A DNA stretch of 59,556 bases, counting the filler. It is 4 parts of 4 records of this genome, joined end to end, with 100 filler letters (N's around TTAATTAATTAA, not from the genome) between each part and the next. Parts side by side here need not be neighbours in the genome. Positions count along the whole stretch, not along the records: positions 13,362 to 43,827 come from DRR723986_1445; 3 more parts are not named here. One strand, given 5' to 3'. The notes under the pieces were generated by a model, which searched no databases, was not told the DNA's origin, and saw only the letters and a program-made list of their open reading frames with translations. How positions within the stretch are numbered: the stretch's first letter is position 1; each line of letters opens with the position of its first letter. Of this stretch, positions 18,991 to 41,139 are shown piece after piece. The translations under genes were made by a program, and so were the position numbers.

Positions 18991-20748
18991 ATGGCACAGA
19001 TGAAGAAGATCGGCGAACTGCTGGTAGAACAAGGCAAGATTTCCGAACGGGACGTGGAGCGTACCTTGCTCGCCCAGAGCGAGATGGGGGATATGTTCGG
19101 CCAGGTCCTGGTCAAACTCGGCCTGGTGTCAGAGCTGGACTTCGCCGGTGTGCTCAGCCAGCAGCTGGGAATCCCGCTGATTACTGCCCCGGAATACCCG
19201 GAGGAACCGGTGGCGCTGGAAGGCGTTGCCCAGGATTTCCTGTTCAGCAACCTGGTGGTGCCGATCGCTGTCAGCGACGCCGAGGTCAGCTTTGCCGCGG
19301 CGGTGCCGCAGGACCCGTTCATCAGCAAGGCCCTGGGTATGGCACTGGAAAAACCGGTGCGGGTGGTGCTGGGCCTGGAAAGCGATATCAACAAGGCCCT
19401 GCAGGCACACCTGCAGACGGCTGAGGGCGATGGCGACGAGGACGGGATCGACGACCAGTTCGCCGGCCAGAGCGACGATGAGTTCATCGAGCACCTCAAG
19501 GACCTTGCCAGTGAAGCGCCGGTCATCCGCCTGGTGAACCAGATTGTGCACCGGGCGGTGGACATGGGCGCGTCCGACATCCACATCGAACCCTTCGACG
19601 ACGGCCTGCACCTGCGCTACCGGGTGGACGGGGTGCTGCAGGATTATCCCGACGCACCGGGCGCCAACCTGGCCGCCGCCATCGCCTCGCGGATCAAGCT
19701 GCTGTCGCATATGAATATCGCCGAGCGGCGCCTGCCCCAGGACGGGCGCATCATGACCCGGGTGAAGGGGCACGAACTCGACCTGCGGGTCTCGACCATC
19801 CCCACGGTGCATGGCGAAAGCATTGTCATGCGGGTGCTGGACCGGGAGAGCATCCGGCTCAGCCTGCCCGATATGGGCTTCAGCGAGGATACCCTCGCAC
19901 GCTACCAGACTTTGCTGGCCCGCCCCCACGGGGTGCTGCTGGTGACCGGGCCCACGGGTTCCGGTAAGACCACCACCCTGTATGCCTCGCTGGCCTCACT
20001 GGACTCGGAGTCGCTGAAGATCATCACCGTGGAGGACCCGGTGGAATACCAGCTCGACGGGGTCAATCAGATCCAGGTACAGGCCCAGATCGAGCTCACT
20101 TTCGCCCGGGCGCTGCGTTCCATCCTGCGCCAGGACCCGGACATCATCATGATCGGGGAAATGCGCGACACGGAAACCGCCCAGATCGGTGTCCAGTCGG
20201 CGCTCACCGGCCACCTGGTGCTCTCTACCCTGCACACCAATACGGCAGCTGGCGCGATTACCCGGCTCGAGGATATGGGGGTGGAACGCTACCTGATTAC
20301 CTCCTCGGTCAACGGTGTGCTGGCCCAGCGCCTGGTGCGAACCCTGTGCAGCAGCTGCAAGGCACCGGTAGAGCTGACCGACGTGGCGATCCAGCAGTAC
20401 AACCTCAAGCGCTTCCTGCCCGCGGGGCAGCGCACTGTCTACCAGGCCAAGGGCTGCGCGAACTGCAATCACACCGGTTACACCGGGCGGACCTCCATCC
20501 ATGAACTGTTCCTGCTCGACGAGGTGATGCACCGCGTGATCATGAGCGGTGCCGACGCCACCAGCCTGCACAAGGCGGCCAGGGAGCAGGGCATGATCAC
20601 CCTGTTCGAGGACGGCCTGCGCAAGGTTGTCGAAGGCGTGACCTCCCTTGAGGAAGTGATGCGGGTCACCCAGGACCAGAGCGAATCGGAAGACGCGCCG
20701 GAAGCGGTGACAGCAGACCTGTCCCTCGCCCAGCCGGTGTCCGTGTAA
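18991..20748 (+). CDS. gspE: T2SS ATPase GspE with N-terminal MshEN-like domain
   Basis: GPTGSGKTTT, ASDIHIEP, LRQDPDIIMIGE, STLHTN, CxxC...CxxC. Confidence 0.95.
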   Translation: MAQMKKIGELLVEQGKISERDVERTLLAQSEMGDMFGQVLVKLGLVSELDFAGVLSQQLGIPLITAPEYPEEPVALEGVAQDFLFSNLVVPIAVSDAEVSFAAAVPQDPFISKALGMALEKPVRVVLGLESDINKALQAHLQTAEGDGDEDGIDDQFAGQSDDEFIEHLKDLASEAPVIRLVNQIVHRAVDMGASDIHIEPFDDGLHLRYRVDGVLQDYPDAPGANLAAAIASRIKLLSHMNIAERRLPQDGRIMTRVKGHELDLRVSTIPTVHGESIVMRVLDRESIRLSLPDMGFSEDTLARYQTLLARPHGVLLVTGPTGSGKTTTLYASLASLDSESLKIITVEDPVEYQLDGVNQIQVQAQIELTFARALRSILRQDPDIIMIGEMRDTETAQIGVQSALTGHLVLSTLHTNTAAGAITRLEDMGVERYLITSSVNGVLAQRLVRTLCSSCKAPVELTDVAIQQYNLKRFLPAGQRTVYQAKGCANCNHTGYTGRTSIHELFLLDEVMHRVIMSGADATSLHKAAREQGMITLFEDGLRKVVEGVTSLEEVMRVTQDQSESEDAPEAVTADLSLAQPVSV

Positions 20749-20757
20749 GCGCGCCCC

Positions 20758-21963
20758 ATGCCCCAGTTCAGCTATAAGGCAGTCGGCCGGGACGGCAAGG
20801 GCCGCGAAGGCGTGATCGAGGCGGACGGCCTGGAACTGGCCCAGCGCCAGCTGCGGTCCCAGGGGCTGACCTTGCTCAAGCTGGAAGCCGGCGCCGGCAG
20901 CAAGCCCGGTGACCTGGCAGCCGGCAAGCCGCCCAGCCGCCAGGAAGTACTGTCCATGACCTCGGAGCTGGCGGTGCTATTGCGCGCCGGCCTGCCGCTG
21001 GACCGTGCCCTGAAAGTGCTGATCGACATGGCCGCCCAACCGCAGATGAACGCCCTGCTGGCGGATCTGCTGAAAGCAGTGAAAGGGGGCAAGGCCTTCA
21101 GCGCCGCCTTGCTGCCGCACGAGAAAATCTTCGGCAATTTTTACGTCAGCATGGTGCGCGCCGGGGAAGCCAGCGGCCAACTGTCAGCGGTGCTGGACCG
21201 GCTGGTCGAGTATCTCGAGAACGCGAAGGCGAATCGCGACACCGTGGTGTCGGCGCTGATTTACCCGGCCATCCTGCTGGTGGTCGCGGTGCTCTCGATC
21301 GTGGTCATGCTGGGCTTCGTGGTGCCGCAATTCGAAACGCTGTTCGAAGACATGGGCGAGGCCCTGCCCGGGATGACCCGTATGGTCATCGCTGCGGCGG
21401 ATTTCATTGCTGCCTGGGGCTGGTTGCTGGCTATCGTCCTCATCGGCGGTGGAATATACCTGCGCCGCTGGGCGTCAACCCCGGAAGGGCGTGCGACGCT
21501 GCATGCGCGCTTGTTGCGCCTGCCGATCGCCGGCGGGATCGTTTTCGAATTCGAGGTGTCCAAGTTCGCCCGTACGGTCGGTACCCTGCTGGGTAACGGG
21601 GTTTCCCTGCTGAAGGCGATCTCTATTGCGATCGATACGGTGGACAACACGGTTATCAAGGAGTCGCTGGAGGTGCTGCCGCCGGCGGTGAAGGCCGGCA
21701 AGCGTATGTCGGTGGCCCTGGAAGAAACGAAGATGTTTACCCCTATGGTCATCCAGATGACCCGGGTGGGCGAGGAATCCGGCAGCCTCGACAAGATGAT
21801 GCTGGAACTGGCCAAGGTGTTCGACGATCACGTGCAGTCAGGGGTCAAGCGCAGCCTGACGCTGCTGGAGCCGGTGCTGATACTCAGCATGGGCTTCATT
21901 ATCGCGGTGATCATTATCGCTATCCTGATGGGCATCCTGTCGGTCAACGACCTGGCCGTGTAA
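20758..21963 (+). CDS. gspF: T2SS inner-membrane platform protein
   Basis: LLRAGLPL, AGEASGQL, ALIYP, VGEESG.L, LLEP. Confidence 0.95.
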   Translation: MPQFSYKAVGRDGKGREGVIEADGLELAQRQLRSQGLTLLKLEAGAGSKPGDLAAGKPPSRQEVLSMTSELAVLLRAGLPLDRALKVLIDMAAQPQMNALLADLLKAVKGGKAFSAALLPHEKIFGNFYVSMVRAGEASGQLSAVLDRLVEYLENAKANRDTVVSALIYPAILLVVAVLSIVVMLGFVVPQFETLFEDMGEALPGMTRMVIAAADFIAAWGWLLAIVLIGGGIYLRRWASTPEGRATLHARLLRLPIAGGIVFEFEVSKFARTVGTLLGNGVSLLKAISIAIDTVDNTVIKESLEVLPPAVKAGKRMSVALEETKMFTPMVIQMTRVGEESGSLDKMMLELAKVFDDHVQSGVKRSLTLLEPVLILSMGFIIAVIIIAILMGILSVNDLAV

Positions 21964-21991
21964 GTACCTGAACGACTGAGAACTGGGAATT

Positions 21992-22435
21992 GTGACCATG
22001 CTGCAACACCGTACACGCCGAAACGAGCGCCGCCAGCGCGGCTTTACCCTGATGGAACTGCTGGTGGTGCTGGCCATCCTCGGTCTGCTGATGAGCCTGG
22101 TTGGGCCACAGGTGTTGAACCAGCTCGGTGGCGCCAAGACCAAGACCGCGGCCATCCAGATCAAGGACCTGGAACAGTCGCTGGAGATGTACAAGCTCGA
22201 CGTCGGCCGTTTCCCCTCCACCAATGAAGGTCTCAGTGCGCTGGTGGTCAAGCCTGCCGGCGCGGCGGGCTGGAACGGCCCCTACCTGAAGTCCGCCGTA
22301 CCCCTGGACCCCTGGAAACGTGAATACAACTACAAATACCCCGGTGAGCGCGGCGAGCTGGATATTTTCAGCTACGGCCAGAACGGCACCCCGGGCGGGG
22401 AGGGGGAAGATGCTGACGTGGGTAACTGGCAATAG
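21992..22435 (+). CDS. gspG: T2SS major pseudopilin
   Basis: RG|FTLMELLVV, YKLDVGRFPS..EGL.AL, WNGPYL, DPW, D.DVGNW. Confidence 0.96.
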   Translation: MTMLQHRTRRNERRQRGFTLMELLVVLAILGLLMSLVGPQVLNQLGGAKTKTAAIQIKDLEQSLEMYKLDVGRFPSTNEGLSALVVKPAGAAGWNGPYLKSAVPLDPWKREYNYKYPGERGELDIFSYGQNGTPGGEGEDADVGNWQ

Positions 22436-22470
22436 CCTGACGGCCCCCGGCACTCGCTGGTGAATTGCTG

Positions 22471-22950
22471 ATGACCGCGCTGCCCCGGCGCAATCGCGTC
22501 ACTGCTTCCCAGAATGCCGGCTTCACCCTGCTGGAACTGCTGGCGGCCCTCACCGTGGTGGGCCTGGTCCTCGCGGTTTCCATACCCTCTACGGTGCGTT
22601 TCTACGATTCCATCCAGTACCGGCAATCGATCCGCGATACCGTCACGGTGCTCGCCTCGGCGCGTCACGAGGCGGTGACCAGCGGTGTGGCCCAGGATGT
22701 ACTGATCAACCCGCGAGAGCGCTCGGTGCGCTACGGCGATACCGTTCATCAGTTGCCTGAGGTGGTAAACATCGCCGTGCATTCCGCACAGGAAGTTAAC
22801 CGGCAGGACGAGGGGGTTATTCGCTTCTACCCGGAAGGCGGCTCCAGTGGCGGTGGTGTCGACATCGAACGCCCCGGGGTTGGCGGCGTCAGCATCCAGG
22901 TCGACTGGCTGGTCGGACGAGTCACCCATGAGACCTTCGAGATCAACTAG
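22471..22950 (+). CDS. gspH: T2SS minor pseudopilin H
   Basis: G|FTLLELL, IRFYPEGGSSGG, VDWLVGRV. Confidence 0.88.
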   Translation: MTALPRRNRVTASQNAGFTLLELLAALTVVGLVLAVSIPSTVRFYDSIQYRQSIRDTVTVLASARHEAVTSGVAQDVLINPRERSVRYGDTVHQLPEVVNIAVHSAQEVNRQDEGVIRFYPEGGSSGGGVDIERPGVGGVSIQVDWLVGRVTHETFEIN

Positions 22951-23338
22951 GCGCGATACGCGCAGCCGGGCCGCGGGGTTTTCCCTGCTGGAGATGGTTG
23001 TCGCCATCGCGATTCTGTCGCTGGCGCTGGCCGCGCTCTACCAGGCCGCCAGCGGCGCGACGCGCAATGTCCGCACCGACGAGAAATACGCCTTCGGTGT
23101 GGAGCTGGCCCGCTCACTGCTGGCAGATAATGCCCGCGTCCCGCGCAACGGCATCAGCAGGCGAGGCGAAACCGACGGCGGCTTTATCTGGAGCGTGCAG
23201 ACCCGCCCGGTTCCGCTGCAGCGCGGCGGCCTGCCCCAGGGGAGCCTGCACTACATCGATATCGAAGTCGGCTGGACCGACGGCCGGCGCCCCGGGCGCT
23301 TCGTGCTGAGCTCGGTGGTTGAGGGGATCCGCAAATGA
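22928..23338 (+). CDS. gspI: T2SS minor pseudopilin I
   Basis: G|FSLLEMVVAIAI; position in cluster. Confidence 0.85.
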   Translation: MRPSRSTRRDTRSRAAGFSLLEMVVAIAILSLALAALYQAASGATRNVRTDEKYAFGVELARSLLADNARVPRNGISRRGETDGGFIWSVQTRPVPLQRGGLPQGSLHYIDIEVGWTDGRRPGRFVLSSVVEGIRK

Positions 23339-23964
23339 TCCTGCCTGCTACAGCCTTTGCTGCCCGACGCGGTTCTGCGGCAGCCGGTTTCACCCTGGTC
23401 GAGGTGATGGTCGCCCTGACCATCCTGTCGCTGGTGATGGTCGTCACCGTCACCGGCTTCCGCACCCTGGGCAATACCCAGGTCTCCATCGACCGCATGA
23501 CCGACCGTGTTGACGAGATTCGCAGTGTCAGTTCCTTCTTGCGGGATGCGTTTGAGGCCACCGTTGTTGGGGATGACAACGAGGGGCTGACCCTTGGCGG
23601 CGGAGGTGGCTCAAGCAGTGACGGGTTCTTCCGGATTGCCGAGCAGGGCGTGGAGTGGCGTTCCGCCCTGTTGTTTGGAGAGGCTTTCGGCGGCAGCTTT
23701 TATTTGCGCCTGGTGAAGCAGGATGACGCGCTGGTGCTGCAGTGGCAGGAGCCCCGCGGTCGGCGACCCAGCCCCTGGGCGGACAGTCAATCCCGAGTGG
23801 TGATCGACCAGGTGGAGGCGTTCACTGTAGCCTACAAACGCGAGCCTGGCGGTCCGTGGCAGGAACAGTGGGACCGCAGTATCTCAACGCCCTCGCTGAT
23901 CCGCCTCAGCATCAAGTCTTCCGGGCGCTACTGGCCGGACCTGATCATGGACATGGGCCGATGA
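23335..23964 (+). CDS. gspJ: T2SS minor pseudopilin J
   Basis: G|FTLVEVMVALTI; C-terminal W...W....P.LIRL...WP. Confidence 0.85.
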   Translation: MILPATAFAARRGSAAAGFTLVEVMVALTILSLVMVVTVTGFRTLGNTQVSIDRMTDRVDEIRSVSSFLRDAFEATVVGDDNEGLTLGGGGGSSSDGFFRIAEQGVEWRSALLFGEAFGGSFYLRLVKQDDALVLQWQEPRGRRPSPWADSQSRVVIDQVEAFTVAYKREPGGPWQEQWDRSISTPSLIRLSIKSSGRYWPDLIMDMGR

Positions 23965-24797
23965 AACCGACTGCAGGCTCATCAGAGCGCCGACGGTTCT
24001 CGCAGGGCGGTGTTGCCCTGGCTATCGTGGTCTGGTTTATCGCCGGGATGTCATTGCTGGTGGCGGGTATTGTGGCCCAGGCCCGGGTGGATACCCGACT
24101 GGCTCAGGTACATGCCGATCGCGCGCGCCTGGTGGCGGCAGGTGACGGCGCGATCAGGTTGTTCATCTCGGAGCTTGCCGTACTGTCGGAGCAGGGCGGC
24201 AGGTCCCAGGGCTTTAGCTTACCCACGTATCGGCTTGGCGAATTGAGCGTCAGCATTGAAGCGGTACCGGTCGCAGCGCTGATAGACCTCAACGCCGCCC
24301 AGCTGCCGCTGTTGCGGGAATTGTTTGTCGCAGCCGGCGGCCTGTCGCAGGCGCAGGCCAACGAGATGGCCCAGGCGATTGTGCGGTGGCGCAGCCCCGG
24401 GCAGCGCCGCGGAAGTGGCAAGCGCTTCGACTCGGTGGAAGATATCATGCGGGTCCCCGGCATGAGGCGACAGCTGTATGACAATATTCGGGATCATGTC
24501 GCTGCTGGTGCCGGCGTTGGCGGTGCTCTCATGTATGAGCTCGCTGACCCGGTCATCAGGCAAGCCGCGCGCCGAGCCGGAATAGCGCCCGGTCAGGGGG
24601 CGGCGCCTGCTGATCGACGTGGGATTTTTGCCTCTGGCCGCGCCTTGCGCGTGGATGCGATAATCACGACCGGAAACCGGCGCTGGACGCGAAGGCAATG
24701 GCTGACGCCCGGCGCCAGCGCAAATTCGAGTCTGCCCTGGGGGGCGGTAAAGATCGAGGCCCCGCGGGTACTCAGGCCGATTACGCAGACAGGATGA
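23961..24797 (+). CDS. gspK: T2SS minor pseudopilin K
   Basis: G|VALAIVVW (no Glu5), IDLNAA, F.SVED..RVPGM. Confidence 0.85.
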   Translation: MKPTAGSSERRRFSQGGVALAIVVWFIAGMSLLVAGIVAQARVDTRLAQVHADRARLVAAGDGAIRLFISELAVLSEQGGRSQGFSLPTYRLGELSVSIEAVPVAALIDLNAAQLPLLRELFVAAGGLSQAQANEMAQAIVRWRSPGQRRGSGKRFDSVEDIMRVPGMRRQLYDNIRDHVAAGAGVGGALMYELADPVIRQAARRAGIAPGQGAAPADRRGIFASGRALRVDAIITTGNRRWTRRQWLTPGASANSSLPWGAVKIEAPRVLRPITQTG

Positions 24798-24806
24798 GGA
24801 CAGTGA

Positions 24807-25823
24807 ATGTCGCAAAGTAGCGACAATTGGATGTTGTTCGGATATGACGTTCGGGATTTTGGCCGCCTGTGGCGGGTAGCCTGGACGGATTTCCTGTGGG
24901 CGGACGATTCACCGGTGAAGAACCAGCTGGACGATATCGTCAGCGTGCAGGAGGGTGCCGAATCAGGGGCCTATCAGGCCGGACGCAAGGTTGCGCATGA
25001 TCCCGTGTCCCTGCGCGCGGTTGCCCTGCCCGAAGACCTGGTACTGGTGCGTCGCTTATCCCTGCCGGCGGCAGCGCTTCCCAACCTTGAGTCAGTCGCG
25101 GGTCTCGAGGTCGGAGCCAGCAGTCCGTTTTCCGCGGATGACACGACGTCCGGCTGGGTTCTCCTGCCAGGGCACCTGGATAAGCTTGACCTGAGGATTG
25201 TGATCGCCTCGCGCAGCGCGGTGATGTCCCATCTGTCGCGCGAGCACGATGTTCACGAGCCTGCGGAGCGGGAAGTCTGGGCGAGAGTGGATGAGCAGTG
25301 GGTTGTATTGAAAGGCTTCGGGGAAGGCCAGCGGCGGGCCAGTTACCGGCAGCGTCTGCAGCGGGTTGGTTTTATGATTGCTGCGGCGGCAGCCCTGTTG
25401 CTGCTGATTGTGGCAGCGAACGTAGGCTTCAAGCAGCTCGAGCTGAACCAGCTGGAAAACCTGGCGGCCTACACCCAGCGCGAAGCGGCAACCGCCATGG
25501 AGCTGCGTGGCCAGTTGACCGACATAAATGAAACCATCTCGGAAGTGAACCGGCTGGTGGCGGCTTACCCAAGCCCCCATGTGGAGTTGGCGCGCCTGAC
25601 CCAGCTGCTTGGCGATGACGCGTTTATCCAGCAGTTCCAGATGAACGGGCGGGAGATTCGCTTGCGTGGCCAGGCGGCAGATGCCGCTGGCGTGATGCAG
25701 TTGCTGACCGAACAGGACGCCTACAGCTCGGTGACAGCGCCGCAGGCGATTACCAAGATTTCCAGTTCCACCAAGGAGCAGTTCTACCTGAACATCACGC
25801 TCGCTGCGGAGAACGCGGGATGA
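24807..25823 (+). CDS. gspL: T2SS GspL (PilN-like periplasmic domain)
   Basis: LVRRLSLPAAA..NL, SPF, one TM segment, then LRGQAADA; position in cluster. Confidence 0.8.
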   Translation: MSQSSDNWMLFGYDVRDFGRLWRVAWTDFLWADDSPVKNQLDDIVSVQEGAESGAYQAGRKVAHDPVSLRAVALPEDLVLVRRLSLPAAALPNLESVAGLEVGASSPFSADDTTSGWVLLPGHLDKLDLRIVIASRSAVMSHLSREHDVHEPAEREVWARVDEQWVVLKGFGEGQRRASYRQRLQRVGFMIAAAAALLLLIVAANVGFKQLELNQLENLAAYTQREAATAMELRGQLTDINETISEVNRLVAAYPSPHVELARLTQLLGDDAFIQQFQMNGREIRLRGQAADAAGVMQLLTEQDAYSSVTAPQAITKISSSTKEQFYLNITLAAENAG

Positions 25824-26386
25824 ACTGGCTGAAAACGCACCGGCAAACCGCATGGATAGTCGGTTTAAGTTTGCTTATCCCGGTTGTTCTGTACCTTTAC
25901 CTGCTGGGGAACCTGCTGGCAGTCCGCTCGGACATCCAGGGGGAAATCGACCGGCTGTCGCCACGGGTGGCGAGAATGCAGGGCTTGCGCGATGCACAGG
26001 CTGACATGGAAGCTGCGCTGGCCGACGGTGGTCGCGAGAACGCGGGGATGGTTTACCCGTCGACCCAGGATGAGGCGGCGGTGTCTGCTGCGCTGCAGGC
26101 AGAAGTCCGTCGTCTGCTGGGCGATGCCGGGATGTCGATCAGTAACAGCCAGGTGCTGCCCGCTGAGGAGCTGGCCAGTTTTGATCGTATCGGCATCAAT
26201 GTGACGGCAACCGGTGATGTCGCATCCCTTGATGCTGCGCTGGAAAGCCTTGCCATCTACCGGCCGATGCTGCTGGTGGAATCGCTGGACGTGTATCCCA
26301 ACAGGAGTCGCAGTCGGGGTGATGGGCAAGCCCCTCAGACCATTACCGCGCGCTTACAGATCATGTCACTCAGGTCCGCCTCGTGA
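25820..26386 (+). CDS. gspM: T2SS GspM
   Basis: N-terminal TM segment, A.AALQ..VR, P.LLVESL; position in cluster. Confidence 0.8.
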   Translation: MNWLKTHRQTAWIVGLSLLIPVVLYLYLLGNLLAVRSDIQGEIDRLSPRVARMQGLRDAQADMEAALADGGRENAGMVYPSTQDEAAVSAALQAEVRRLLGDAGMSISNSQVLPAEELASFDRIGINVTATGDVASLDAALESLAIYRPMLLVESLDVYPNRSRSRGDGQAPQTITARLQIMSLRSAS

Positions 26387-27030
26387 ATATTGTTGAGTGG
26401 GCAAAAGCCCGCTACGGCCTGCGCACCAACCCGCTAATGGCGGAGCGGCGCGTCGAGCTGCTTGTGCTGGTGTTGGCTCTGTTGTTAGTGCTCCATGTCG
26501 TGCTGGGCCTGGTGTTTGCTCTCCTGCGCGCAGGTCCCGAGCGCGTGTTGCCGGCGGCGGATTCACTCAGGGTATCGCAGCTGCAGTTGTTTGATCCGCT
26601 GACGGAGGACCAGTCAGCGGGCATCGTGTCACGCCCCCTGTTCTGGGAATCACGCCAGCCGCTTCAAGGCGTCGCTGTCGTCGCACCGGCAAAGGACGAC
26701 AAGCCGAAGGCTGTAGGTGAATTGAAAGGTGTTAAGCTGGTCGGGATTTTCGGCGGTGGCAGCGAGGGCGGTGCCATCGTGATGGTCAAGGGTAACAAGC
26801 AGCGTGTACTGGTCGGTGCGGACTTGGAAGGCTGGCGGCTGGAGTCTATTGCATCGGACCGGGCAGTGTTTGTCAGTGGGGCTGCCAGAGATGAAAAACT
26901 GCTGGCCACGGCGACACCGGAGCAACTCGCGCCAGCGCCGCAACCGGCCGCCGGCGCAAAGCGTGCGAAACCAGAACCGGCCCTGCCATCCGGGGAATTG
27001 ACCCTGGGAGGCATGGTGTCCGGAAAATGA
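26383..27030 (+). CDS. XpsN-like / GspC-equivalent T2SS protein
   Basis: TM segment, RPLFWESRQP, LVGIF..G..G.AI, G..LEGWRL.SI; lies between gspM and gspD as xpsN does. Confidence 0.7.
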   Translation: MNIVEWAKARYGLRTNPLMAERRVELLVLVLALLLVLHVVLGLVFALLRAGPERVLPAADSLRVSQLQLFDPLTEDQSAGIVSRPLFWESRQPLQGVAVVAPAKDDKPKAVGELKGVKLVGIFGGGSEGGAIVMVKGNKQRVLVGADLEGWRLESIASDRAVFVSGAARDEKLLATATPEQLAPAPQPAAGAKRAKPEPALPSGELTLGGMVSGK

Positions 27031-27052
27031 TAAGAACAGGGGATAGAACCAA

Positions 27053-29974: not shown

Positions 29975-29990
29975 TACCATGTTGGATTGG

Positions 29991-31632: not shown

Positions 31633-31666
31633 GATCAGCTAGTCTGATCTGAGACGTAGTACTAGG

Positions 31667-31699
31667 AAAACCGACGCTCTAGGGCGTCGGTTTTTTTTT
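31667..31699 (+). terminator. Strong intrinsic terminator
   Basis: AAAACCGACGCT-CTAG-GGCGTCGG followed by a T9 run; a second hairpin AGATCAG-CTAGT-CTGATCT at 31632-31650. Confidence 0.9.
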
Positions 31700-31721
31700 G
31701 CTCATGGAGAACCGATAAACA

Positions 31722-32712: not shown

Positions 32713-35700
32713 ATGTCCACTAAGCCCAACCTCGTGATTCTCGGCATGCATCGCTCCGGTACCTCGATGGTTGCCGGCGCGCTGGTGCGTGCCGGGCTTT
32801 ACCCAGGAAATGCTGACGAACTGCTGGTCGACCAGGAGGACAATCCGCACGGATTCTGGGAGCGAAGGGATGTTGTTGCACTGAACGATGAGATCCTGGC
32901 TTCGGCGGGCGGCGTCTGGTTTGATCCGCCTTCACTCGCACTGGACGTTGATGTGCCGAGGTTGCCGATCGAGGAGATCGTGGCGCGCCTGGGAAGTAGC
33001 CCCTGGTTAATCAAGGATCCTCGCATGGTAATCACCTGGCCCTGCTGGCGTGAACGCCTGGGCGAGGTTGTTGTGCTCTATGTGTACCGAAACCCGGCGG
33101 CCGTGGCGTTATCGTTGCAGCGGAGGAATCAATTTCCGCTAAGCCTTGGCCTGGCGCTCTGGGAGTACTACAACAGGGCGGCTATTGAAGCATTGGCGCA
33201 GCAAGATTCCGTGGCAGTCTCTTTCGATGCAATCTCCGCCGAGCCAGTTCAGGCGATCGAGTCACTGCTTGAACGCCTGGCGGCTCTTGGTCTCGGCGTG
33301 ACGTCAGGAGACCTCAATGGTGTTTATGATAAACAACTGTCCCAGTCATGGCGTGAGCACGCCCAGGACGTCGAACAGTTGATGACGGCGGATCAGTGCG
33401 CGCTGGCTGATTATTGTGAAGCCATGTGCGCTGGCAAGCCGCTGCCGAAGCTGCCACCGGCTGACCGCTTCCTCCAGCAGCGTATTCACGATCTGGCGAC
33501 TGCGCTTGAGCCCCTGTCTGACGCGCGGGAAACACGAACACGACTGGAAGAGCGGACAGACGAGCGCGATGCCTTGCTTGCCCAGCTGAAGTCGGTTGAG
33601 GCAGAGTACAGCGCGCTGCACAAGGCTCACGAGCAGGAGAAAGCGCGTCACGCAGAACTCGCTCGCACCCGCGACCAGTTGGAGAGCGAGCATCTGGCGC
33701 TGGCCGAGGCGCACCGCAGTGAAGTCAGTCGTCATGAGCAACTGGTGACCGAGCATAATCGTCTGGGTGAGGAGTACCGTGCGCTACTTGAGAAAGCCGA
33801 GTTCCTGTTTGAACTGGTAACTCGAACCTTCCACAACCTGCTTGCCTACGAGACGTCCTTCCTCGGCTCTCTCGGCCGCTGGACCCGCCTTGGCTATCGC
33901 TTTGTTACATTCCAGCGCGGGAAAAGCACCAGCTACGAGGATGCCCTGGCCGAGGCACGGCATCACTTTGCCGAGTTTGAAATGGACGTTCCGAAACGTC
34001 CCCCGGGTAAGCTCGCCCTGGCCGGGGATGTGTTCCGCTATGTAGTGGATAACCCGGCGGGTTCCGCGAGAAGCTTCAGCCTGGCGCGACTGAAGCGCGC
34101 CTCCTCGGTTTTCCTGACCTCCAGGCCGGAAGACCTCAAGGTTTGGATCGACAGCCGATTTCCCGACCGGGAGGACGCTGGTCTTGCGTTTGATGCCGGG
34201 TCACTTGACGATGCGTTGGACCATCTCGAGCTCACTTTCCCGGTATTCGATTCGCCGCGGGTGAGCATTATCGTGCCGGTCTATAACGAATACCGGGTGA
34301 CGATTTCTTGCCTGGCCAAACTGTTGGAGCACACATCGGACATCCCCTACGAGGTGATCATTGCCGACGACTGTTCCTCTGACCTGACCGATAGCATCAG
34401 CGACAGGGTCAGGAATGTCCGGGTTGTGCGCGGTGAGCAGAACCGGGGTTTCCTGCGCAACTGTAACGCCGCCGCAGCACAAGCCAGCGGCGAGCATGTG
34501 CTTCTACTCAACAATGACACCGCGCCCTGCGAGGGGTGGTTGGCACCAATGCTCGCCATTATGGATGAGCGCCCCACAGCCGGCATTGTCGGGCCCAAGC
34601 TGTTGTTTGCCGACGGCCGTTTGCAGGAGGCAGGGGGCATTATGTGGCGCGACGGCTCGGCCTGGAACTTTGGTCGTGCCGATGATCCGGAGAAACCTGA
34701 GTATAACTACCTTAAGTCGGTGGACTACATCTCCGGTGCGTGTCTGCTGATCCGGAAAACCCTGTGGGATGACATTGGCGGCTTCGATGAACGCTATGTG
34801 CCCGCCTATTACGAGGACGCGGATATCGCCTTCGAGGCCAGGTCCCGGGGTTACGAGGTGATCTACCAGCCCCTGTCCCGGGTATTCCATTTCGAGGGTC
34901 TTAGCAACGGCACCGACCTTGAGGCCGGTATCAAGCAGCACCAGGTAAGCAACCAGACGGTCTTTCGCGACAAGTGGCAGCAGACCCTGGATGCCTTCCA
35001 TTTCCCCAACGCCGAAAACGTATTCCAGGCCAGGGATCGCTCACGCAATCAGCGCAGCATCCTGTTTATCGACCATTACGTGCCGCACCACGACAAGGAT
35101 GCCGGCTCGCGTTCTACCCTGCATTACGTGAAGCTGATGCTCGCCATGGGTTACAAAGTATTGTTCATGGGCGCCAATTTCTTTCCCCACAAACCGTACA
35201 CCGAGCAGCTGCAGCAGTTGGGGGTGGAAGTACTGGTGGGGGAGTATATGGCGCGCAATCTCGACAAGTGGCTGGGCGAGAACGCCCCCTATATCGATAC
35301 GATCTACCTGCACCGGCCCCATGTGGCCGAGCAGTTCCTGGCCAGCCTGCACCGGATGAAGCCGCGGCCGAAGATTATTTTCTTTGGCCACGATCTGCAT
35401 TACCTGCGGGTGGCACGGGAAGCTGAGTTGTTGGGTGATGCGACGCTGGAAAAGACCTCCGAGTCCTGGCGTAAGCGTGAATATGCGGTGTTTGATAAGG
35501 TCGACACGGTGTATTACCCGTCCCAGGTGGAAGTTGATGCGATCAATGCCAGTCGCGCAGATCTCGATGTCAGGGCCATTCCACTGTACACGCTGGATAT
35601 CGGCGAACTCCCACCCTATGAGCACGAGGGCCGTGCGGATATATTATTTGTCGGTGGCTTCAACCACCCGCCAAACGTCGACGCGGTGTGCTGGTTTGTC

Positions 35701-36204
35701 GATCAGGTTTTGCCGCTGGTACGGGCCGGCCAGCCAGAGGTGCGATTGCATGTGGTCGGCTCTAATCCCACCGATGCGGTGCAGGAATTGCAGAGTGATG
35801 CGGTGCAGGTCTACGGCTACCTGAGCGATGCCGAGCTGGAGGCGATGTATCGTCGGATCATGGTGGCGGTGGTTCCGCTGCGCTACGGGGCCGGGGTAAA
35901 GGGTAAGGTGATTGAGGCGATCCAGATGAATGTGCCGTTGGTTACTACCGCGGTCGGTGCCGAGGGGATACCCGAAGCCGAGCGGGTAATGAGTGTCGCA
36001 GATACCGCTGAAGAACTGGCCCAGTCGATCAGCCGGGTTGTCACCGGCGATCCCGCAAGCCTGGCAAAGCTCGCCAACTATCGGAACTGGCTGGAAGACC
36101 ATTTCAGTACGTCAAAAGCCAGCCAGATAGTGGTAGAAGACTTTGGGCCACCCCGCCGTGAAGTTGCGATACCGGTTCCTGAGAGCATGGGAGCAATATC
36201 TTGA
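32713..36204 (+). CDS. Multidomain protein: sulfotransferase-like, coiled coil, GT2, GT4
   Basis: LGMHRSGTS/DNPHGFWE/KDPR/YRNP; heptad-rich segment; VSIIVPVYN, DDCSSD, LLNND, VDYISGAC, YYEDAD; DKDAGS, FVGGFNHPPNVDA, PLRYGAGVKGKVIEA. Confidence 0.85.
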   Translation: MSTKPNLVILGMHRSGTSMVAGALVRAGLYPGNADELLVDQEDNPHGFWERRDVVALNDEILASAGGVWFDPPSLALDVDVPRLPIEEIVARLGSSPWLIKDPRMVITWPCWRERLGEVVVLYVYRNPAAVALSLQRRNQFPLSLGLALWEYYNRAAIEALAQQDSVAVSFDAISAEPVQAIESLLERLAALGLGVTSGDLNGVYDKQLSQSWREHAQDVEQLMTADQCALADYCEAMCAGKPLPKLPPADRFLQQRIHDLATALEPLSDARETRTRLEERTDERDALLAQLKSVEAEYSALHKAHEQEKARHAELARTRDQLESEHLALAEAHRSEVSRHEQLVTEHNRLGEEYRALLEKAEFLFELVTRTFHNLLAYETSFLGSLGRWTRLGYRFVTFQRGKSTSYEDALAEARHHFAEFEMDVPKRPPGKLALAGDVFRYVVDNPAGSARSFSLARLKRASSVFLTSRPEDLKVWIDSRFPDREDAGLAFDAGSLDDALDHLELTFPVFDSPRVSIIVPVYNEYRVTISCLAKLLEHTSDIPYEVIIADDCSSDLTDSISDRVRNVRVVRGEQNRGFLRNCNAAAAQASGEHVLLLNNDTAPCEGWLAPMLAIMDERPTAGIVGPKLLFADGRLQEAGGIMWRDGSAWNFGRADDPEKPEYNYLKSVDYISGACLLIRKTLWDDIGGFDERYVPAYYEDADIAFEARSRGYEVIYQPLSRVFHFEGLSNGTDLEAGIKQHQVSNQTVFRDKWQQTLDAFHFPNAENVFQARDRSRNQRSILFIDHYVPHHDKDAGSRSTLHYVKLMLAMGYKVLFMGANFFPHKPYTEQLQQLGVEVLVGEYMARNLDKWLGENAPYIDTIYLHRPHVAEQFLASLHRMKPRPKIIFFGHDLHYLRVAREAELLGDATLEKTSESWRKREYAVFDKVDTVYYPSQVEVDAINASRADLDVRAIPLYTLDIGELPPYEHEGRADILFVGGFNHPPNVDAVCWFVDQVLPLVRAGQPEVRLHVVGSNPTDAVQELQSDAVQVYGYLSDAELEAMYRRIMVAVVPLRYGAGVKGKVIEAIQMNVPLVTTAVGAEGIPEAERVMSVADTAEELAQSISRVVTGDPASLAKLANYRNWLEDHFSTSKASQIVVEDFGPPRREVAIPVPESMGAIS

Positions 36205-37028
36205 GATCCGTTCTGCTTCATGGGCATATGTTCAAGAATGCCGGCTCTACCCTGGACTGGTCCCTGCAACGACACTTTGCTGACGGTTTCATCGACCATC
36301 GCCGGGATGACCTGATGCGCTCCCGTGGCGGTGACTACGTGGCTGAGATGGTGCGGGAAGACAGCAGGATTTGTGCTATCTCCAGTCATCACATGCCACG
36401 ACTTATCTCCCCAGTTAAAGATGTCCAATTCGTGCAGGTCTATTTGCTGCGCCACCCGATCAAGCGTATTCGCTCTGTGTACGACTTTGAACGCAAGCAG
36501 CAGGCGGAAACCCCGGGCGCTGTGGCGGCCAAGAAGATGAACTTCAAGGACTATGTCGACTGGCGGATGCAGCGCAAGGTCGCGCCGACCATAAGGAATT
36601 TCCAGTCGCGTTACCTGGCGGGCCGCTTTCCTCCCCTGCATGAAAAGATGAGCGAGCTGGAGTACTTCAAGTTTGCACTGGACACTCTGCACGAGATTCC
36701 GTTTATCGGTGTCGTAGAGCAATACGATCAGACGATGGTCATGCTGGAAGAACTTTTACAGCCCTATTTTCCCGGTATCGACCTGGCGCATGTGCCGCAG
36801 AACGTGACCCGTCGCGGGCTCCATGCCTCCGATGATTCCAGGGATGTAAGGGGCGTACTGGAAAGCCTGGGTGATCTCCAGGAGCGAGTGATAGAACACA
36901 ACAGTTTCGACCTGGCCCTGTATGAGGCTGCCTCGTCGCTTCTCCACAGCCGTCTTGAAGCCATCGACGATTTTGCTGAACGACTCAAACAGTTCAAGGG
37001 CCGCTGTCGGTCCTTGCGCAAGAGCTGA
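36201..37028 (+). CDS. Sulfotransferase family 2-like protein
   Basis: 5'-PSB-like HMFKNAGST, 3'-PB-like LRHPIKRIRSVY, N..DLALY; start overlaps the upstream stop. Confidence 0.75.
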   Translation: MRSVLLHGHMFKNAGSTLDWSLQRHFADGFIDHRRDDLMRSRGGDYVAEMVREDSRICAISSHHMPRLISPVKDVQFVQVYLLRHPIKRIRSVYDFERKQQAETPGAVAAKKMNFKDYVDWRMQRKVAPTIRNFQSRYLAGRFPPLHEKMSELEYFKFALDTLHEIPFIGVVEQYDQTMVMLEELLQPYFPGIDLAHVPQNVTRRGLHASDDSRDVRGVLESLGDLQERVIEHNSFDLALYEAASSLLHSRLEAIDDFAERLKQFKGRCRSLRKS

Positions 37029-37084
37029 CCTGTGCAGCGGGTAAGTCAACAGATTGAAGAGTCGGAACTGCGCGGGTTGGCAGT

Positions 37085-38098
37085 ATGAAGTGTGTCATCC
37101 ATATCGGCACAGAGAAGACCGGATCTACCGCCTTGCAGAACTACCTGCACGAACGAAGGACGAGGTTGGCGGGGTCTGGTGTGCATTTCTGTAAAACTGC
37201 GGGCCCCAGGAATAACCGCGCTTTGCCGGCAGCTTTTGTTTCTGAGGATCGAGAGGATGATTACATCCGCAGAAGAGGCTTTGCGTCACCCGTAGAGCGT
37301 GCCGCCTGGCGTGATGAGGTGTTGGAGAACGTTCGTCGCGAGATTGAGGGCGCTCGTTGGTCTTGCGACACGTTCATCCTATCCTCCGAGCACTTCCAGT
37401 CCCGGCTCTGGCGACCGGACGAAGTCGCCCGCTTCGCCGACTTCATTAGCCCATTATTCGACAGTACCGAGGTTGTCTGTTACCTGCGCCGGCAGGACAG
37501 GATGGCCATCAGCCTCTACAGCACAGCGCTGCGGGCGGGGCATGTTATCCATGGATTTCTGCCTGCTAAGCAGCGGGCGAAGAGCCGCTCAGGCTACTAC
37601 GACTTTGATAGCCTGCTTGATCGCTGGGCTGCTGCCTTTGGGGAAAATAGCATTAGCGCACGCGAGTATGCCGAAGATTCGCTGGTCGGTGGTGAGATAG
37701 TCTCCGACTTTCTCGCGCTATTGGGTCTTGAGCCCGATACCGGCTATCAGGCGGCAAAACACAATGAAAGCCTCTCGGCTGATGCCCTGCAGGTATTGCT
37801 CTTCGCCAACGAATTCCTTCAATCAGGCAACCCCAGGCAAGCCCTGGAGGTCCGAAAGCGACTGGTCAATTTCCTGCTGCGTGAAGGTCAGGGTCCGCGG
37901 GCACTTCCGGCACTGTCTGATGTCGAACGATTCATGGGGTTTTTTGAGCAGAGTAACCGGCGCTGTGCCAGGCGCTGGTTTGATCGCGATGAATTGTTTG
38001 ATAGTGATTACAGTGCATACCCGACTGAGGCCTATACGGGCGACCCGACACGCATTGTTGAATTGTTGCGGACGTTTTCCGCGAAGGAGTCACAGTGA
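37085..38098 (+). CDS. Sulfotransferase-like P-loop protein
   Basis: IHIGTEKTGSTALQ, ILSSEHF, YLRRQD...SLYS, NESLS. Confidence 0.7.
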   Translation: MKCVIHIGTEKTGSTALQNYLHERRTRLAGSGVHFCKTAGPRNNRALPAAFVSEDREDDYIRRRGFASPVERAAWRDEVLENVRREIEGARWSCDTFILSSEHFQSRLWRPDEVARFADFISPLFDSTEVVCYLRRQDRMAISLYSTALRAGHVIHGFLPAKQRAKSRSGYYDFDSLLDRWAAAFGENSISAREYAEDSLVGGEIVSDFLALLGLEPDTGYQAAKHNESLSADALQVLLFANEFLQSGNPRQALEVRKRLVNFLLREGQGPRALPALSDVERFMGFFEQSNRRCARRWFDRDELFDSDYSAYPTEAYTGDPTRIVELLRTFSAKESQ

Positions 38099-38847
38099 GC
38101 TGGGGTGTCGCGCAGCAATCTGCAACGTCAACCGGCACCGGTCCTGAGCAGATGCTGATTTCAGTCCACCTGCCCAAAACCGCTGGCTCGAGTTTTGTTG
38201 CCGCGCTGGAGTCGCATTTTGGCGACGAGTTGCGCAAGGACTATGCCGACGTGCCGATGAATCGCTCCACGCCCAGACGCAACCTCGCTGCCCTTAGGCG
38301 CGCCTTGATGCTCTCGGAGGTAGGCATTCCCTCTGGAATCCGCTGTATCCACGGCCACTATATGCCCCTCAAGTACCGCCTGATGCACAGCCCGGCCAGC
38401 AAGGTCTACGTAACCTGGATGCGTGACCCGGTGGAACGCCTGGCCTCACACTACTTCTACTGGCGGCGCAGTTTCCAGCCCGGAGAATCGGCGCGCCTGC
38501 ATCGCCGGGTAGTGGAGGAAGACTGGTCCCTTGAACGGTTCTGCTTCAGCAGGGAAATGCGCAACACCTATGCAAAGTTTCTCTGGGGATTTCCCCTGTC
38601 TAACTTTCATTTTGTGGGCATCACCGAGCAGTTTGAAGAGGAGATGCAGCGCTTTTCGAGCCAGATTCTTAAACACCCTCTGCCGCCGCTGCAGCTGAAT
38701 ACCAATCCGACAGGCGGTCGCGGTCCCTATATTGATGACCCGGATTTCCGGCAAGCTATCGAGCGTTATCACGCGAAAGATATGGCGCTCTACCACCAGG
38801 CGCTGGAGATGCGGATACCGTTCTTTGAGGCCCAGGCGCGTGCCTGA
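38095..38847 (+). CDS. Sulfotransferase family 2-like protein
   Basis: HLPKTAGSS, IHGH, RDPVERLASHY, FVGITEQF, DMALY; alternative ATG at 38152. Confidence 0.78.
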   Translation: MSWGVAQQSATSTGTGPEQMLISVHLPKTAGSSFVAALESHFGDELRKDYADVPMNRSTPRRNLAALRRALMLSEVGIPSGIRCIHGHYMPLKYRLMHSPASKVYVTWMRDPVERLASHYFYWRRSFQPGESARLHRRVVEEDWSLERFCFSREMRNTYAKFLWGFPLSNFHFVGITEQFEEEMQRFSSQILKHPLPPLQLNTNPTGGRGPYIDDPDFRQAIERYHAKDMALYHQALEMRIPFFEAQARA

Positions 38848-38856
38848 ACGCACCCG

Positions 38857-40113
38857 GTGAGCGCGGCGGAGCCCTCGCTGCAGGCGTCGATTCTCAACCG
38901 GCGCATGTTGATCTGTGTATTCACCGGCTTTGCCTCGGGGATGCCACTCTACGTGCTGTTTCAGCTGGTGCCTGCCTGGCTGCGGGACGGCGGCGTCTCC
39001 CTCACCGAAATTGGTTTGTTCGCGCTGGTCGGTATTCCCTATACCTGGAAATTCCTCTGGGCCCCGTTGATGGATCGCTGGTCGCTACCGGGCTTTGGTC
39101 GCCGGCGCGGCTGGATGCTGTATTCGCAGCTTGGCCTGGTGGTCGCCATCGGGGTCATGGGCGCCTACCAGCCTTCCCAGTCCACCGCGACCATCGCAGT
39201 GCTGGCGCTGCTGGTCGCCCTGTTCAGCGCAACCCAGGACGTTGCTATCGACGCCTACCGGCGTGAGATCCTGCCGGACCGCGAACTGGGCTTGGGAAAT
39301 GCTATCCATGTGCAGGCTTATCGCATATCCAGCCTGGTGCCGGGTTCCCTGTCGCTGATCCTCGCGGACATCCTGCCCTGGTCGACGGTGTTCTGGATTA
39401 CCGGGCTGTTCATGCTCGCGGGGGTCGCCCTCAGTATCCTGGTGACTGAGCCTGAATCCGATTTGCCCGAACCGGGCTCCTTGCGCGAGACCATCATCGC
39501 CCCCTTTCGGGAGTACCTGCGCCGGCGCGGGTTTAACAGCCTGCTGCTGGCGCTGGCCTTCATGTTTCTGTACAAGCTCGGCGACAATATGGCGACCGCG
39601 CTGGCCACGCCGTTCTACCTGGATATGGGTTTCACCAAGACCCAGATTGGTCTGGTGGCCAAGCATGCCGCGCTCTGGCCTGCGATAGCCGGTGGCCTGC
39701 TGGGTGGGCTGGTCATGGTCAGGATGGGAATCAACAAGTCGCTGTGGTTGTTTGGCCTGGTGCAGATGGTGAGTATTTTCGGCTACGCGGTGTTGTCTGA
39801 GTCGGGAACGATTTTGTGGCTACTGGCCGCGGTCATTGGCTTTGAATACCTCGGTGTCGGGATGGGAACAGCCGCCTTTACTGCCTATATCGCCCGGGAA
39901 ACCAGCCGGACCTTCGCCGCCACCCAGTTTGCCCTGTTTACTGCCCTTGCGGCCCTGCCGCGTACCTTTGCCAATGCGAGTACCGGCGCTATCGTGGAAA
40001 CGGTGGGCTGGACCCAGTTCTTCCTGCTGTGCGCCCTGCTGGCGATACCCGGTATGCTGTTGTTGTTCTGGGTGGCGCCATGGCGTGGGGAGAAGGGCGA
40101 GAGCGATGTCTAG
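38857..40113 (+). CDS. ampG: AmpG muropeptide MFS permease
   Basis: GFASGMP, PYTWKFLWAPLMDR, GRRRGW, SATQDVAIDAYRRE, YKLGD, ATQFALFT. Confidence 0.92.
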   Translation: MSAAEPSLQASILNRRMLICVFTGFASGMPLYVLFQLVPAWLRDGGVSLTEIGLFALVGIPYTWKFLWAPLMDRWSLPGFGRRRGWMLYSQLGLVVAIGVMGAYQPSQSTATIAVLALLVALFSATQDVAIDAYRREILPDRELGLGNAIHVQAYRISSLVPGSLSLILADILPWSTVFWITGLFMLAGVALSILVTEPESDLPEPGSLRETIIAPFREYLRRRGFNSLLLALAFMFLYKLGDNMATALATPFYLDMGFTKTQIGLVAKHAALWPAIAGGLLGGLVMVRMGINKSLWLFGLVQMVSIFGYAVLSESGTILWLLAAVIGFEYLGVGMGTAAFTAYIARETSRTFAATQFALFTALAALPRTFANASTGAIVETVGWTQFFLLCALLAIPGMLLLFWVAPWRGEKGESDV

Positions 40114-40191
40114 CACCTGTGACTGCGATGGTTCCCAGTTCAGACTGATTACCAGGCCAGCCCGCCGTTGGGTGCCTGAGGAAAGCAGCTT

Positions 40192-41139
40192 ATGTTTGGT
40201 TTAGCTCGCAGGGACCGGTCCCTGCCGATCATCAGTATCGTGGTCGTGGTCTACGATATGCCGCGTCAGGCGGCCAATACCCTGCGCTCACTGGCTGCTG
40301 ATTATCAGCGCGGCGCCCTGGCGGAGGAATACGAGGTCATCGTGGTCGAGAACCGCTCGGCGAACTGCCTGCCGCAGGCGGTGATCGACGAGCTGCCCGA
40401 AAATTTTCGCTACACGCTTCGCGATGAGACCGAGCCCACCCCCGTCTACGCGATCAATGCCGGCGCTGCGATGGCGCGTGGCCAGCATATCTGTGTGATG
40501 GTCGACGGTGCCCGCATGCTGACCCCGGGTGTGGTCAGCGGCCTGATGCGGGGGCACCGGGTGTCGGCCAATGCCGTGGTCACTGTGCCCGGCTACCACA
40601 TCGGCTCCCAGTTGCAGCAGGATGCGGTGGAGAGCGGCTACGATGTGGAGCAGGACCAGGCCCTGGTCGCTTCCGTCGACTGGACGGTAAACGGCTACCG
40701 CCTGTTCGACATCGCCTGCTTCAGCGAGTCCTGTGCCGTCGGCTTCTTCCTGCCCAACGGGGAAAGCAACTGCATCAGCATGCCCATGCGGGTCTGGAAG
40801 ACCCTGCGCGGCTGTGATCCCCGGTTCAATATTCGCGGCGGCGGCCTGGTGAACCTGGACCTGTACAAGCGGGCCTGTGAGTTTCCCGGAATCCAGCACG
40901 TGATGCTGCCGGGGGAGGGCACGTTCCACCAGTTCCACGGTGGAGTGACAACCGGGGGCGAAAGCCGGGCGCGGCGCGCCGCCCTGATTGCCGAGATCCG
41001 CGACAACTACCTGTCAGTCCGGGGCGAGGACTACCGGCGACCACAGACGGTGCCGATCTTCCTTGGCCATATCCCGCCGCAGGCACAACGTTTCCTGCAG
41101 CTCTCCACTGCCCAGGCCCTGCCCGTCGAGACCGACTAG
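40192..41139 (+). CDS. GT-A fold (GT2-like) glycosyltransferase
   Basis: ISIVVVVYDM, EVIVVEN.S, AINAG, VDGARMLTPG. Confidence 0.75.
   Translation: MFGLARRDRSLPIISIVVVVYDMPRQAANTLRSLAADYQRGALAEEYEVIVVENRSANCLPQAVIDELPENFRYTLRDETEPTPVYAINAGAAMARGQHICVMVDGARMLTPGVVSGLMRGHRVSANAVVTVPGYHIGSQLQQDAVESGYDVEQDQALVASVDWTVNGYRLFDIACFSESCAVGFFLPNGESNCISMPMRVWKTLRGCDPRFNIRGGGLVNLDLYKRACEFPGIQHVMLPGEGTFHQFHGGVTTGGESRARRAALIAEIRDNYLSVRGEDYRRPQTVPIFLGHIPPQAQRFLQLSTAQALPVETD

Follow-up and report, generated by a model that had tools for sequence, protein, structure and literature searches.

Does the type II secretion system (T2SS) encoded at positions 18991-41139 of the stretch of DNA studied here serve one particular protein, and if so, what does that protein build? 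The window, by which we mean the whole stretch of 59,556 nucleotides that was analysed, holds at these positions about 20 genes in a single co-oriented run, all on the plus strand, as read from open reading frames (ORFs) and from Pfam and NCBIfam profile searches. An apparently complete set of gsp genes is followed by the gene of an exported protein of 518 amino acids (aa), a gene for a PpiC-type protein and a block of glycan-related genes. Our favoured answer, to which we assign a probability of roughly 70%, is that the 518-aa gene is a Halieaceae member of the NpdA surface-layer (S-layer) family and that its product is exported by the adjacent, second T2SS, forms a lattice and is linked to a glycan.

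The family assignment carries this reading. In BLASTP the 518-aa protein matched protein P0344 with E 1e-19 and 26% identity along residues 28-446, and the 90% cluster of P0344 includes 'cell surface protein [Ottowia sp.]' from the Comamonadaceae. When a profile of the Halieaceae proteins was compared with a profile of 11 Ottowia-type proteins, hhalign returned a probability of 100 and E 8.8e-40 over 453 columns, end to end. The genome of Haliea salexigens (G004) contains exactly one match to the family profile, and this is located after the gsp cluster. Further, the protein has the features by which NpdA proteins are described: a Sec-type signal (the signal-like N-terminus is conserved in 25 homologs), a length of 518 aa, and no match in the Pfam and NCBIfam profile searches. 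Judged by these comparisons, the gene product very likely belongs to the NpdA family.

NpdA is the S-layer protein of Paracidovorax citrulli (AAC00-1), as shown by deletion, proteomics and electron cryo-microscopy (cryo-EM) by Gajbhiye et al. 2023 (PMC10765051), where it is a 'hypothetical' protein whose signal peptide has 25 aa and whose mature form has 52.4 kDa, without conserved domains. The same paper reports npdA orthologs in 62 betaproteobacterial and 49 gammaproteobacterial species, and finds the upstream cluster of 12 gsp genes to be largely conserved in Beta- and Gammaproteobacteria. Its Table 3 lists among the holders Haliea (Haliea salexigens), Halioglobus, Luminiphilus, Parahaliea (mediterranea), Pseudohaliea (rubra) and Congregibacter (litoralis), while Ottowia appears in Table 2 and O. 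thiooxydans among the imaged cultures. Haliea salexigens DSM-19537 and Congregibacter litoralis KT71 were among the 16 further cultures imaged by cryo-EM (Table 1 there), and a bead-like layer was reported for all 16 except two betaproteobacterial ones (PMC10765051). Knock-out of npdA in Delftia (acidovorans Cs1-4) led to loss of the S-layer; the protein forms oligomers resistant to sodium dodecyl sulfate, its lattice assembly is relayed as dependent on lipopolysaccharide (LPS), and strains with several npdA copies are mentioned (PMC3110197).

The original prediction had taken such a system to be undescribed in Halieaceae-like gammaproteobacteria. That part has to be given up, as PMC10765051 already names Halieaceae holders of npdA and imaged two Halieaceae cultures; the system is not new, because the 518-aa protein falls in a published family that already includes Halieaceae. 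Its central idea, a secreted lattice protein linked to a T2SS, is well supported by the NpdA-family homology and the published gsp linkage, while the lattice itself and its dependence on the T2SS are what we infer.

The family is large and almost nameless. Among 8000 candidates scored, 947 proteins were homologous to the 518-aa protein at E <= 0.001; for the 120 homologs listed, every name given by the source was 'hypothetical protein', and the named organisms were Halieaceae genera. Representative clusters matching the protein numbered 2111 at E <= 0.001, 1001 at 1e-10 and 115 at 1e-30, and a protein atlas search returned unnamed 'hypothetical protein' clusters only. An alignment of 25 members showed conserved signal peptides, cysteine pairs and cores, with many invariant acidic, His and Cys positions, interrupted by hypervariable insertions. 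The insertions lie at alignment columns of about 215-300, 440-500 and 600-680, and their lengths differ strongly between species. This is the pattern expected of the exposed loops of a surface protein.

Codon usage and transcription signals also set the gene apart. Its effective number of codons (ENC) was 37.5 against 58.3 expected from the GC content at third codon positions (GC3), the largest gap among 31 genes of the window, and its two small neighbours had nearly no codon bias. Such a bias fits very high expression, as is typical of a bulk structural protein. A promoter and a terminator of its own had been proposed for the gene, and matching signals are both present: a promoter-like sequence agreeing at 11 of 12 positions, the call being a consensus match only, and a strong hairpin followed by a U run. 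The hairpin folded at -22.8 kcal/mol (z -6.1), and 0 of 200 shuffled sequences were equally stable; a simple terminator scan did not have the site at about 31664-31700 among those it listed.

To follow the neighbourhood we scanned homologs at one genome per species, which gave 74 loci (L001-L074), nearly all from Halieaceae, plus Cocleimonas flava and a Methylomonas metagenome-assembled genome (MAG); the linkage counts take only loci with enough flanking sequence. Just upstream of the npdA homolog a small protein was encoded in 67 of 69 loci, and a PpiC gene lay just downstream in 60 of 62. gspD was found upstream in 58/60 loci, gspF in 56/58, and all of gspG through gspM likewise in 56/58; in the window gspE to gspD span 18991-29269 and end 0.8 kb upstream. 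The co-occurrence of the homologs with gsp genes, the small protein, PpiC and sulfotransferases, which had been named as a check of the original prediction, is thus high in these Halieaceae-dominated loci.

Parts of the same order recur outside the Halieaceae. In the Ottowia-type metagenome loci L108 and L109 the run gspG-H-I-J-K-L-M-N/C-D leads into a small-protein homolog (E 1.3e-6) and on to the npdA-like gene, and in three others (L110, L111, L114) a gene homologous to PpiC (E 6e-12 to 3e-18) comes next after the npdA-like gene. As these loci repeat its parts, we take the gene order to be common to both classes, Beta- and Gammaproteobacteria. Among 401 genomes sampled from the GTDB class, 12 had a match, one of them the query's own relative. 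Here G220 has the full gsp set, G011 has gspF to gspD plus the small protein, and G106 and G289 have gspL/N/D or gspN/D upstream of the npdA-like gene. The domain sits inside a protein of 1131 aa in G119, and the contigs of G163, G165 and G242 were too short or uninformative for the neighbourhood.

One Halioglobus MAG (L018) looked like an exception to the order. In it the npdA homolog occurs as two full copies spaced by about 8 kb, accompanied by a remnant of the C-terminal part and by a fragment of PpiC (352-2049, 10001-11584, 16216-16320). The apparent exception is the second tandem copy, while the primary copy lies between the small protein and PpiC. The extra copies may be a store of alternative surface-layer genes.

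Table 1. Features of the putative surface-layer locus in the window, with the evidence for each
Feature	Position	Strand	Evidence
gspE, secretion ATPase with N-terminal MshE-type c-di-GMP motif and MshEN	18991-20748	+	PF00437 481 bits; PF05157 residues 59-145
gspF, inner-membrane platform	20758-21963	+	PF00482 in two stretches; TIGR02120 379.6 bits (cut-off 424); XpsF model 290.9 bits
gspG, major pseudopilin	21992-22435	+	PF08334 141 bits; TIGR01710 167.6 bits (cut-off 88.85)
gspH, gspI, gspJ, gspK, minor pseudopilins	22465-24797	+	prepilin N-methylation motifs in H, I, J; weak GspH, XpsH, XpsI, GspJ and T2SSK matches
gspL (PilN-like), gspM (XpsM type), 215-aa GspC/XpsN-like ORF	24807-27030	+	PF05137 E 6e-6; PF10741 69.9 bits
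gspD, secretin, npdA-linked lineage	27053-29269	+	TIGR02517 443 bits (cut-off 351)
Small exported NTF2-like protein, a lipoprotein here (147 aa, lipobox LLGAC)	29531-29974	+	no Pfam/NCBIfam match; conserved npdA partner
Sigma-70-like promoter match ahead of the 518-aa gene	29991-30018	+	TTGACA, 16-nt spacer, AATAAT; 11/12 positions
npdA-family surface-layer protein candidate, 518 aa, signal peptide, two beta-rich domains	30076-31632	+	homology, profile comparison, codon bias
Intrinsic-terminator-like hairpin, then U run, 3' of the 518-aa gene	about 31664-31700	+	read in the sequence, then folded
Exported PpiC/SurA/PrsA-type peptidyl-prolyl isomerase	31722-32639	+	PF13616 65.1 bits (cut-off 22.5); PF00639 57.5 bits (cut-off 21.7); signal-like N-terminus
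1163-aa fusion: sulfotransferase-like head, coiled coil, GT2, GT4	32713-36204	+	PF00535 84 bits; PF13692 84 bits; Sulfotransfer_3 E 0.0024
Three sulfotransferase-like ORFs (275, 337, 250 aa)	36201-38847	+	sub-threshold sulfotransferase Pfam matches, E 0.015-0.13
AmpG-family major facilitator superfamily transporter	38857-40113	+	TIGR00901 479.6 bits (cut-off 350); system membership uncertain
GT2 glycosyltransferase	40192-41139	+	PF00535 30.7 bits (cut-off 23.3)

The genes that had been listed for this run were found on the plus strand where they were claimed to be (Table 1), and no hydrolase or toxin gene was found inside 18991-41139, as had also been noted. The gsp genes stand in the order E-F-G-H-I-J-K-L-M-N/C-D, which is the Xps order, and appear to form a complete set. 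The core of a T2SS (GspD, GspE, GspF, GspG) is present; GspE and GspF fall just under their equivalog cut-offs, 618 bits against 630 for GspE with TIGR02533, but both score strongly in Pfam. The matches for H, I, J, K and L and for the C/N-like ORF are weak, and the order and sizes of these genes fit a T2SS. For the 215-aa ORF the weak GspC_delta match (E 3.3e-6, below cut-off) is the one hit, while GspM reached 98.9 bits against a cut-off of 60 with NF040576. The ORF limits of the minor pseudopilins overlap, and the true starts of gspI and gspK are probably near 22950 and 23961.

From this arrangement we propose the following route. The precursor would cross the inner membrane by the Sec pathway, as its signal peptide suggests, and in the periplasm the small NTF2-like (lipo)protein and the PpiC-type foldase, with which it is co-inherited, would handle it. 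The adjacent Xps-order T2SS, distinct from the general T2SS, would then push it across the outer membrane; here the linkage is observed and the function proposed. Outside the cell the protein would assemble into a lattice on the outer membrane, as NpdA does in Delftia and Paracidovorax, reportedly with a need for LPS. The downstream sulfotransferase-like and glycosyltransferase (GT) genes probably make a glycan that lies under the lattice or decorates it, which is the weakest step.

The PpiC protein, of the SurA/PrsA kind, is read as a foldase or holdase. The 147-aa protein gave a confident model (predicted local distance difference test, pLDDT, 93.3) with an NTF2-like cone, and its fold matches were PBP2a N-terminal domains, YchJ, SnoaL-like enzymes and VirB8. 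As it is a lipoprotein gene adjoining gspD, a secretin pilotin of the GspS/AspS type was considered and set aside as unproven: no pilotin was among the Foldseek rows listed, the fold is of the NTF2 kind, npdA loci without gsp keep the protein, and the lipid Cys is missing from some homologs. Because it accompanies npdA where gsp genes are not adjacent and some of its homologs are without a lipobox, we infer that it may be a periplasmic handling or targeting factor for NpdA and not a pilotin or a fixed anchor. A complex prediction for the 518-aa protein with the small protein gave scores of 0.00, 0.78 and 0.00, which speak neither for nor against binding. It should be noted that the words lipoprotein, isomerase, chaperone, glycosyl, lipopolysaccharide and sulfotransferase have 0 occurrences in the main text of PMC10765051.

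A number of observations weigh against this reading or parts of it, and we take them below together with the alternatives that they feed. Some concern the evidence at large. The tie to the P. citrulli protein WP_011797163 and to Delftia DelCs14_5206 runs via the Ottowia-type relative and the species lists of PMC10765051. A single family supplies most of the 74 loci, and the synteny counts are therefore not independent. Further, in about ten relatives of the small protein a plain signal peptide takes the place of the lipobox with its Cys, which counts against an obligatory role as outer-membrane anchor.

The glycan step is the one most open to another explanation, namely that the sulfotransferase and GT genes make an ordinary capsule or O-antigen that is unrelated to the surface layer and merely shares an envelope neighbourhood with it. 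In the 1163-aa protein the GT2 and GT4 domains are solid and the sulfotransferase head is weak; its residues 245-365 gave an SMC-like coiled-coil match of about 120 residues, and we take the layout to resemble the coiled-coil 'ruler' enzymes of ABC-dependent O-antigen synthesis. The sulfotransferase labels of the original prediction hold in so far as the genes are present, and GT2, GT4 and ampG were confirmed, but the profile support for the labels is weak: the best Pfam matches of the four candidates are to sulfotransferase families, all sub-threshold (E 0.0024-0.13). For one of the ORFs (P0568) the PDB gave a match to heparan sulfate 2-O-sulfotransferase (E 0.0035), and the translations contain what we take to be PAPS (3'-phosphoadenosine 5'-phosphosulfate) loop-like motifs.

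Across the loci the sulfotransferase-like genes are more constant than the GT genes. In 50 of 53 loci at least one occurs no more than 10.5 kb downstream of the npdA homolog, the three remaining ones (Luminiphilus) have a gene homologous to a bona fide Sulfotransfer_3, and in 24/60 loci a sulfotransferase-like gene stands between gspD and the small protein. The distant Cocleimonas flava locus (L049; 5314-8906, 13371-14231) has two adenosine phosphosulfate (APS) kinase genes and a Sulfotransfer_3 gene (E 6.7e-13) flanking the triad of small protein, npdA and PpiC, with sugar-nucleotide enzymes also in the flanks. Together with the reported need of NpdA for LPS (PMC3110197), this company argues against an unrelated capsule. 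For it speak the variable glycan gene content, with GT genes in 39/53 loci, the different sulfotransferase family in Luminiphilus, the presence within the run of ampG, a housekeeping-type transporter found downstream of the npdA homolog in 40/53 loci, and the short betaproteobacterial (Ottowia-type) loci, which gave no sulfotransferase match. We regard the unrelated capsule or O-antigen as a real possibility, held with less than even confidence. A sulfated glycan that anchors or decorates the lattice is a reasonable hypothesis, because NpdA assembly is reported to be LPS-dependent. As a possible target we would place such a glycan ahead of tyrosines of the S-layer protein itself, since two glycosyltransferase domains are joined to the sulfotransferase-like head.

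The next question is whether the T2SS is dedicated. A search for a second, general T2SS, put forward as a check of the original prediction, found a canonical GspD elsewhere in 5/5 Halieaceae genomes, at 570-582 bits versus 442-494 for the npdA-linked copy (split in one genome); one of the five has a third copy. The canonical copies are 24-32% identical to the GspD of this locus. When 21 secretins were placed in a maximum-likelihood tree, these copies stood apart as a clade with a very long branch, while the npdA-linked secretins (Halieaceae, Ottowia-type locus, G220, G106, G289) cluster together with support 98/98; for the Ottowia-type row the placement carries caveats of long branch and composition. 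Two gsp clusters are likewise present in P. citrulli (PMC10765051). Since the canonical GspD is separate in all five genomes and the linked secretins form a clade of their own, the data fit a secretion system that travels with npdA.

Linkage is nevertheless not universal in the family. Cocleimonas flava L049 has no gsp gene within 10 kb upstream; in G024, G258 and G351 the small protein, npdA and PpiC stand together with no gsp cluster beside them; and in the class sample gspD was next door in 3 of the 7 loci with enough upstream sequence and absent from there at L100, L102 and L104. In G406 (Cocleimonas) and G258 a single GspD passes the cut-off; it is canonical in kind and encoded away from the npdA-like gene, and PMC10765051 names T2SS export of NpdA as future work. 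The word 'dedicated' in the original prediction therefore keeps indirect backing from the second GspD and the secretin clade and loses its generality with L049, L100, L102, L104, G406 and G258.

These same loci and genomes, the weight of a single family in the synteny counts and the future work announced in PMC10765051 are what favours an NpdA-type S-layer protein whose neighbouring T2SS is not its own, the order being merely inherited and the T2SS having a wider cargo, or the general T2SS doing the export. Such an arrangement seems unlikely to us. Against it stand a gsp-npdA order kept between Halieaceae and the betaproteobacterial type, linked secretins in their own clade and a separate canonical GspD kept in all five Halieaceae genomes. 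Two precedents cited in PMC10765051 point the same way: the secretion system clustered with the S-layer gene of Aeromonas salmonicida is essential and considered dedicated, and in Pseudoalteromonas tunicata a T2SS cluster directly follows slr4.

The AlphaFold model of the 518-aa protein (pLDDT 76.7, predicted template modelling score, pTM, 0.83) is almost all beta. Against chain sequences of the PDB the protein matched nothing at E up to 1, and the model had no Foldseek match in the PDB at E <= 0.001. Its N-terminal domain, matched over residues 30-240, resembles TM1070 (Z 9.8) and galectins (Z about 6), which are generic beta-sandwich matches from a structural search that probed mainly the N-terminal half, and such a sandwich carries no lattice-specific signal. 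Moreover, the first ~350 residues recur as a module in giant multidomain proteins of 1300-3200 aa (P0157, P0166, P0169), in company with dockerin and PKD, GH123 and GEVED, or PATR repeats. A soluble T2SS cargo, that is, a lectin-like or enzymatic exoprotein released or loosely bound and forming no lattice in this lineage, would suit the galectin- and TM1070-like sandwich, its recurrence beside GH123, GEVED, dockerin, PKD or PATR parts and the many invariant acidic, His and Cys positions, but is very improbable in view of the full-length homology to a family published as S-layer proteins, the S-layers reported in two ortholog-carrying Halieaceae cultures (PMC10765051), the extreme codon bias typical of a bulk structural protein and the lack of any catalytic family match in the Pfam, NCBIfam and PDB sequence searches.

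Keeping to the NpdA reading, the locus allows a further suggestion on control. Residues 6-58 of GspE (18991-19430 in the window, the GspE N-terminus) match the cyclic di-GMP (c-di-GMP) motif NF053729 at 50.5 bits against a cut-off of 38. Because the N-terminus has this MshE-type motif and an MshEN domain, c-di-GMP might gate the export of the surface-layer protein. Taken to its end, this gives a self-contained, signal-gated module, in which an NpdA lattice stands on or with a sulfated glycan made by the fusion 'ruler' enzyme and three sulfotransferases, served by a private NTF2-like/PpiC pair and a c-di-GMP-sensing T2SS ATPase; we offer it as speculation and find it doubtful as a whole. Halieaceae (the OM60/NOR5 group) are abundant coastal bacteria, and for this reason their outermost layer matters for attack by phages, for grazing and for attachment to particles. 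To the main texts of the NpdA papers the present analysis adds the NTF2-like and PpiC partners, the secretin lineage travelling with npdA, the c-di-GMP motif of GspE and the persistent company of sulfotransferases.

The flanks of the run are of other kinds. Upstream lie fatty-acid metabolism genes, and downstream, after the last GT2 gene, a DUF481 outer-membrane beta-barrel protein is encoded on the plus strand at 41476-42582 (PF04338, 148 bits). Elsewhere in the window, at 8903-13024 on the minus strand, a molybdenum-cofactor group comprises a 691-aa MoeA with a long N-terminal extension, a MobA-like protein and FdhD, and is unrelated to the surface-layer locus.

Among known systems, NpdA with its upstream gsp cluster, as in Delftia acidovorans Cs1-4 and Paracidovorax citrulli AAC00-1, is the closest. 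Alike are the signal-peptide protein of about 500 aa without known domain, the gsp cluster directly upstream and, in the betaproteobacterial-type loci, the same flanking small protein and PpiC. The protein differs in having 26-27% identity to the betaproteobacterial type and in coming from a marine lineage. We know of no nanopods in Halieaceae. A downstream block of sulfotransferase-like and GT genes, as found here, goes unmentioned in the main text of PMC10765051, and the genetics stem from P. citrulli and Delftia, while the Halieaceae are known from their genes and the published imaging.

Three further systems resemble the locus in part. The S-layer gene of Aeromonas (VapA/AhsA) adjoins a T2SS-type cluster that is considered dedicated (cited in PMC10765051). 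Here an apparently complete E-to-D set adjoins the gene, and the likeness is one of arrangement. Aeromonas also has a general T2SS. Slr4 of Pseudoalteromonas tunicata is likewise a widely distributed marine gammaproteobacterial S-layer protein with its gene beside a T2SS cluster (cited in PMC10765051); we set it apart by description, as it is treated there as another protein family, and slr4 lies upstream of its T2SS whereas the 518-aa gene lies downstream. With the Xps system of Xanthomonas the locus shares the order E-F-G-H-I-J-K-L-M-N-D, and F, H, I and M find their best NCBIfam matches in Xps models, with scores that are far below the Xps-specific cut-offs except for GspM. The cargo of Xps consists of degradative enzymes, whereas the linked cargo candidate at this locus is a structural protein.

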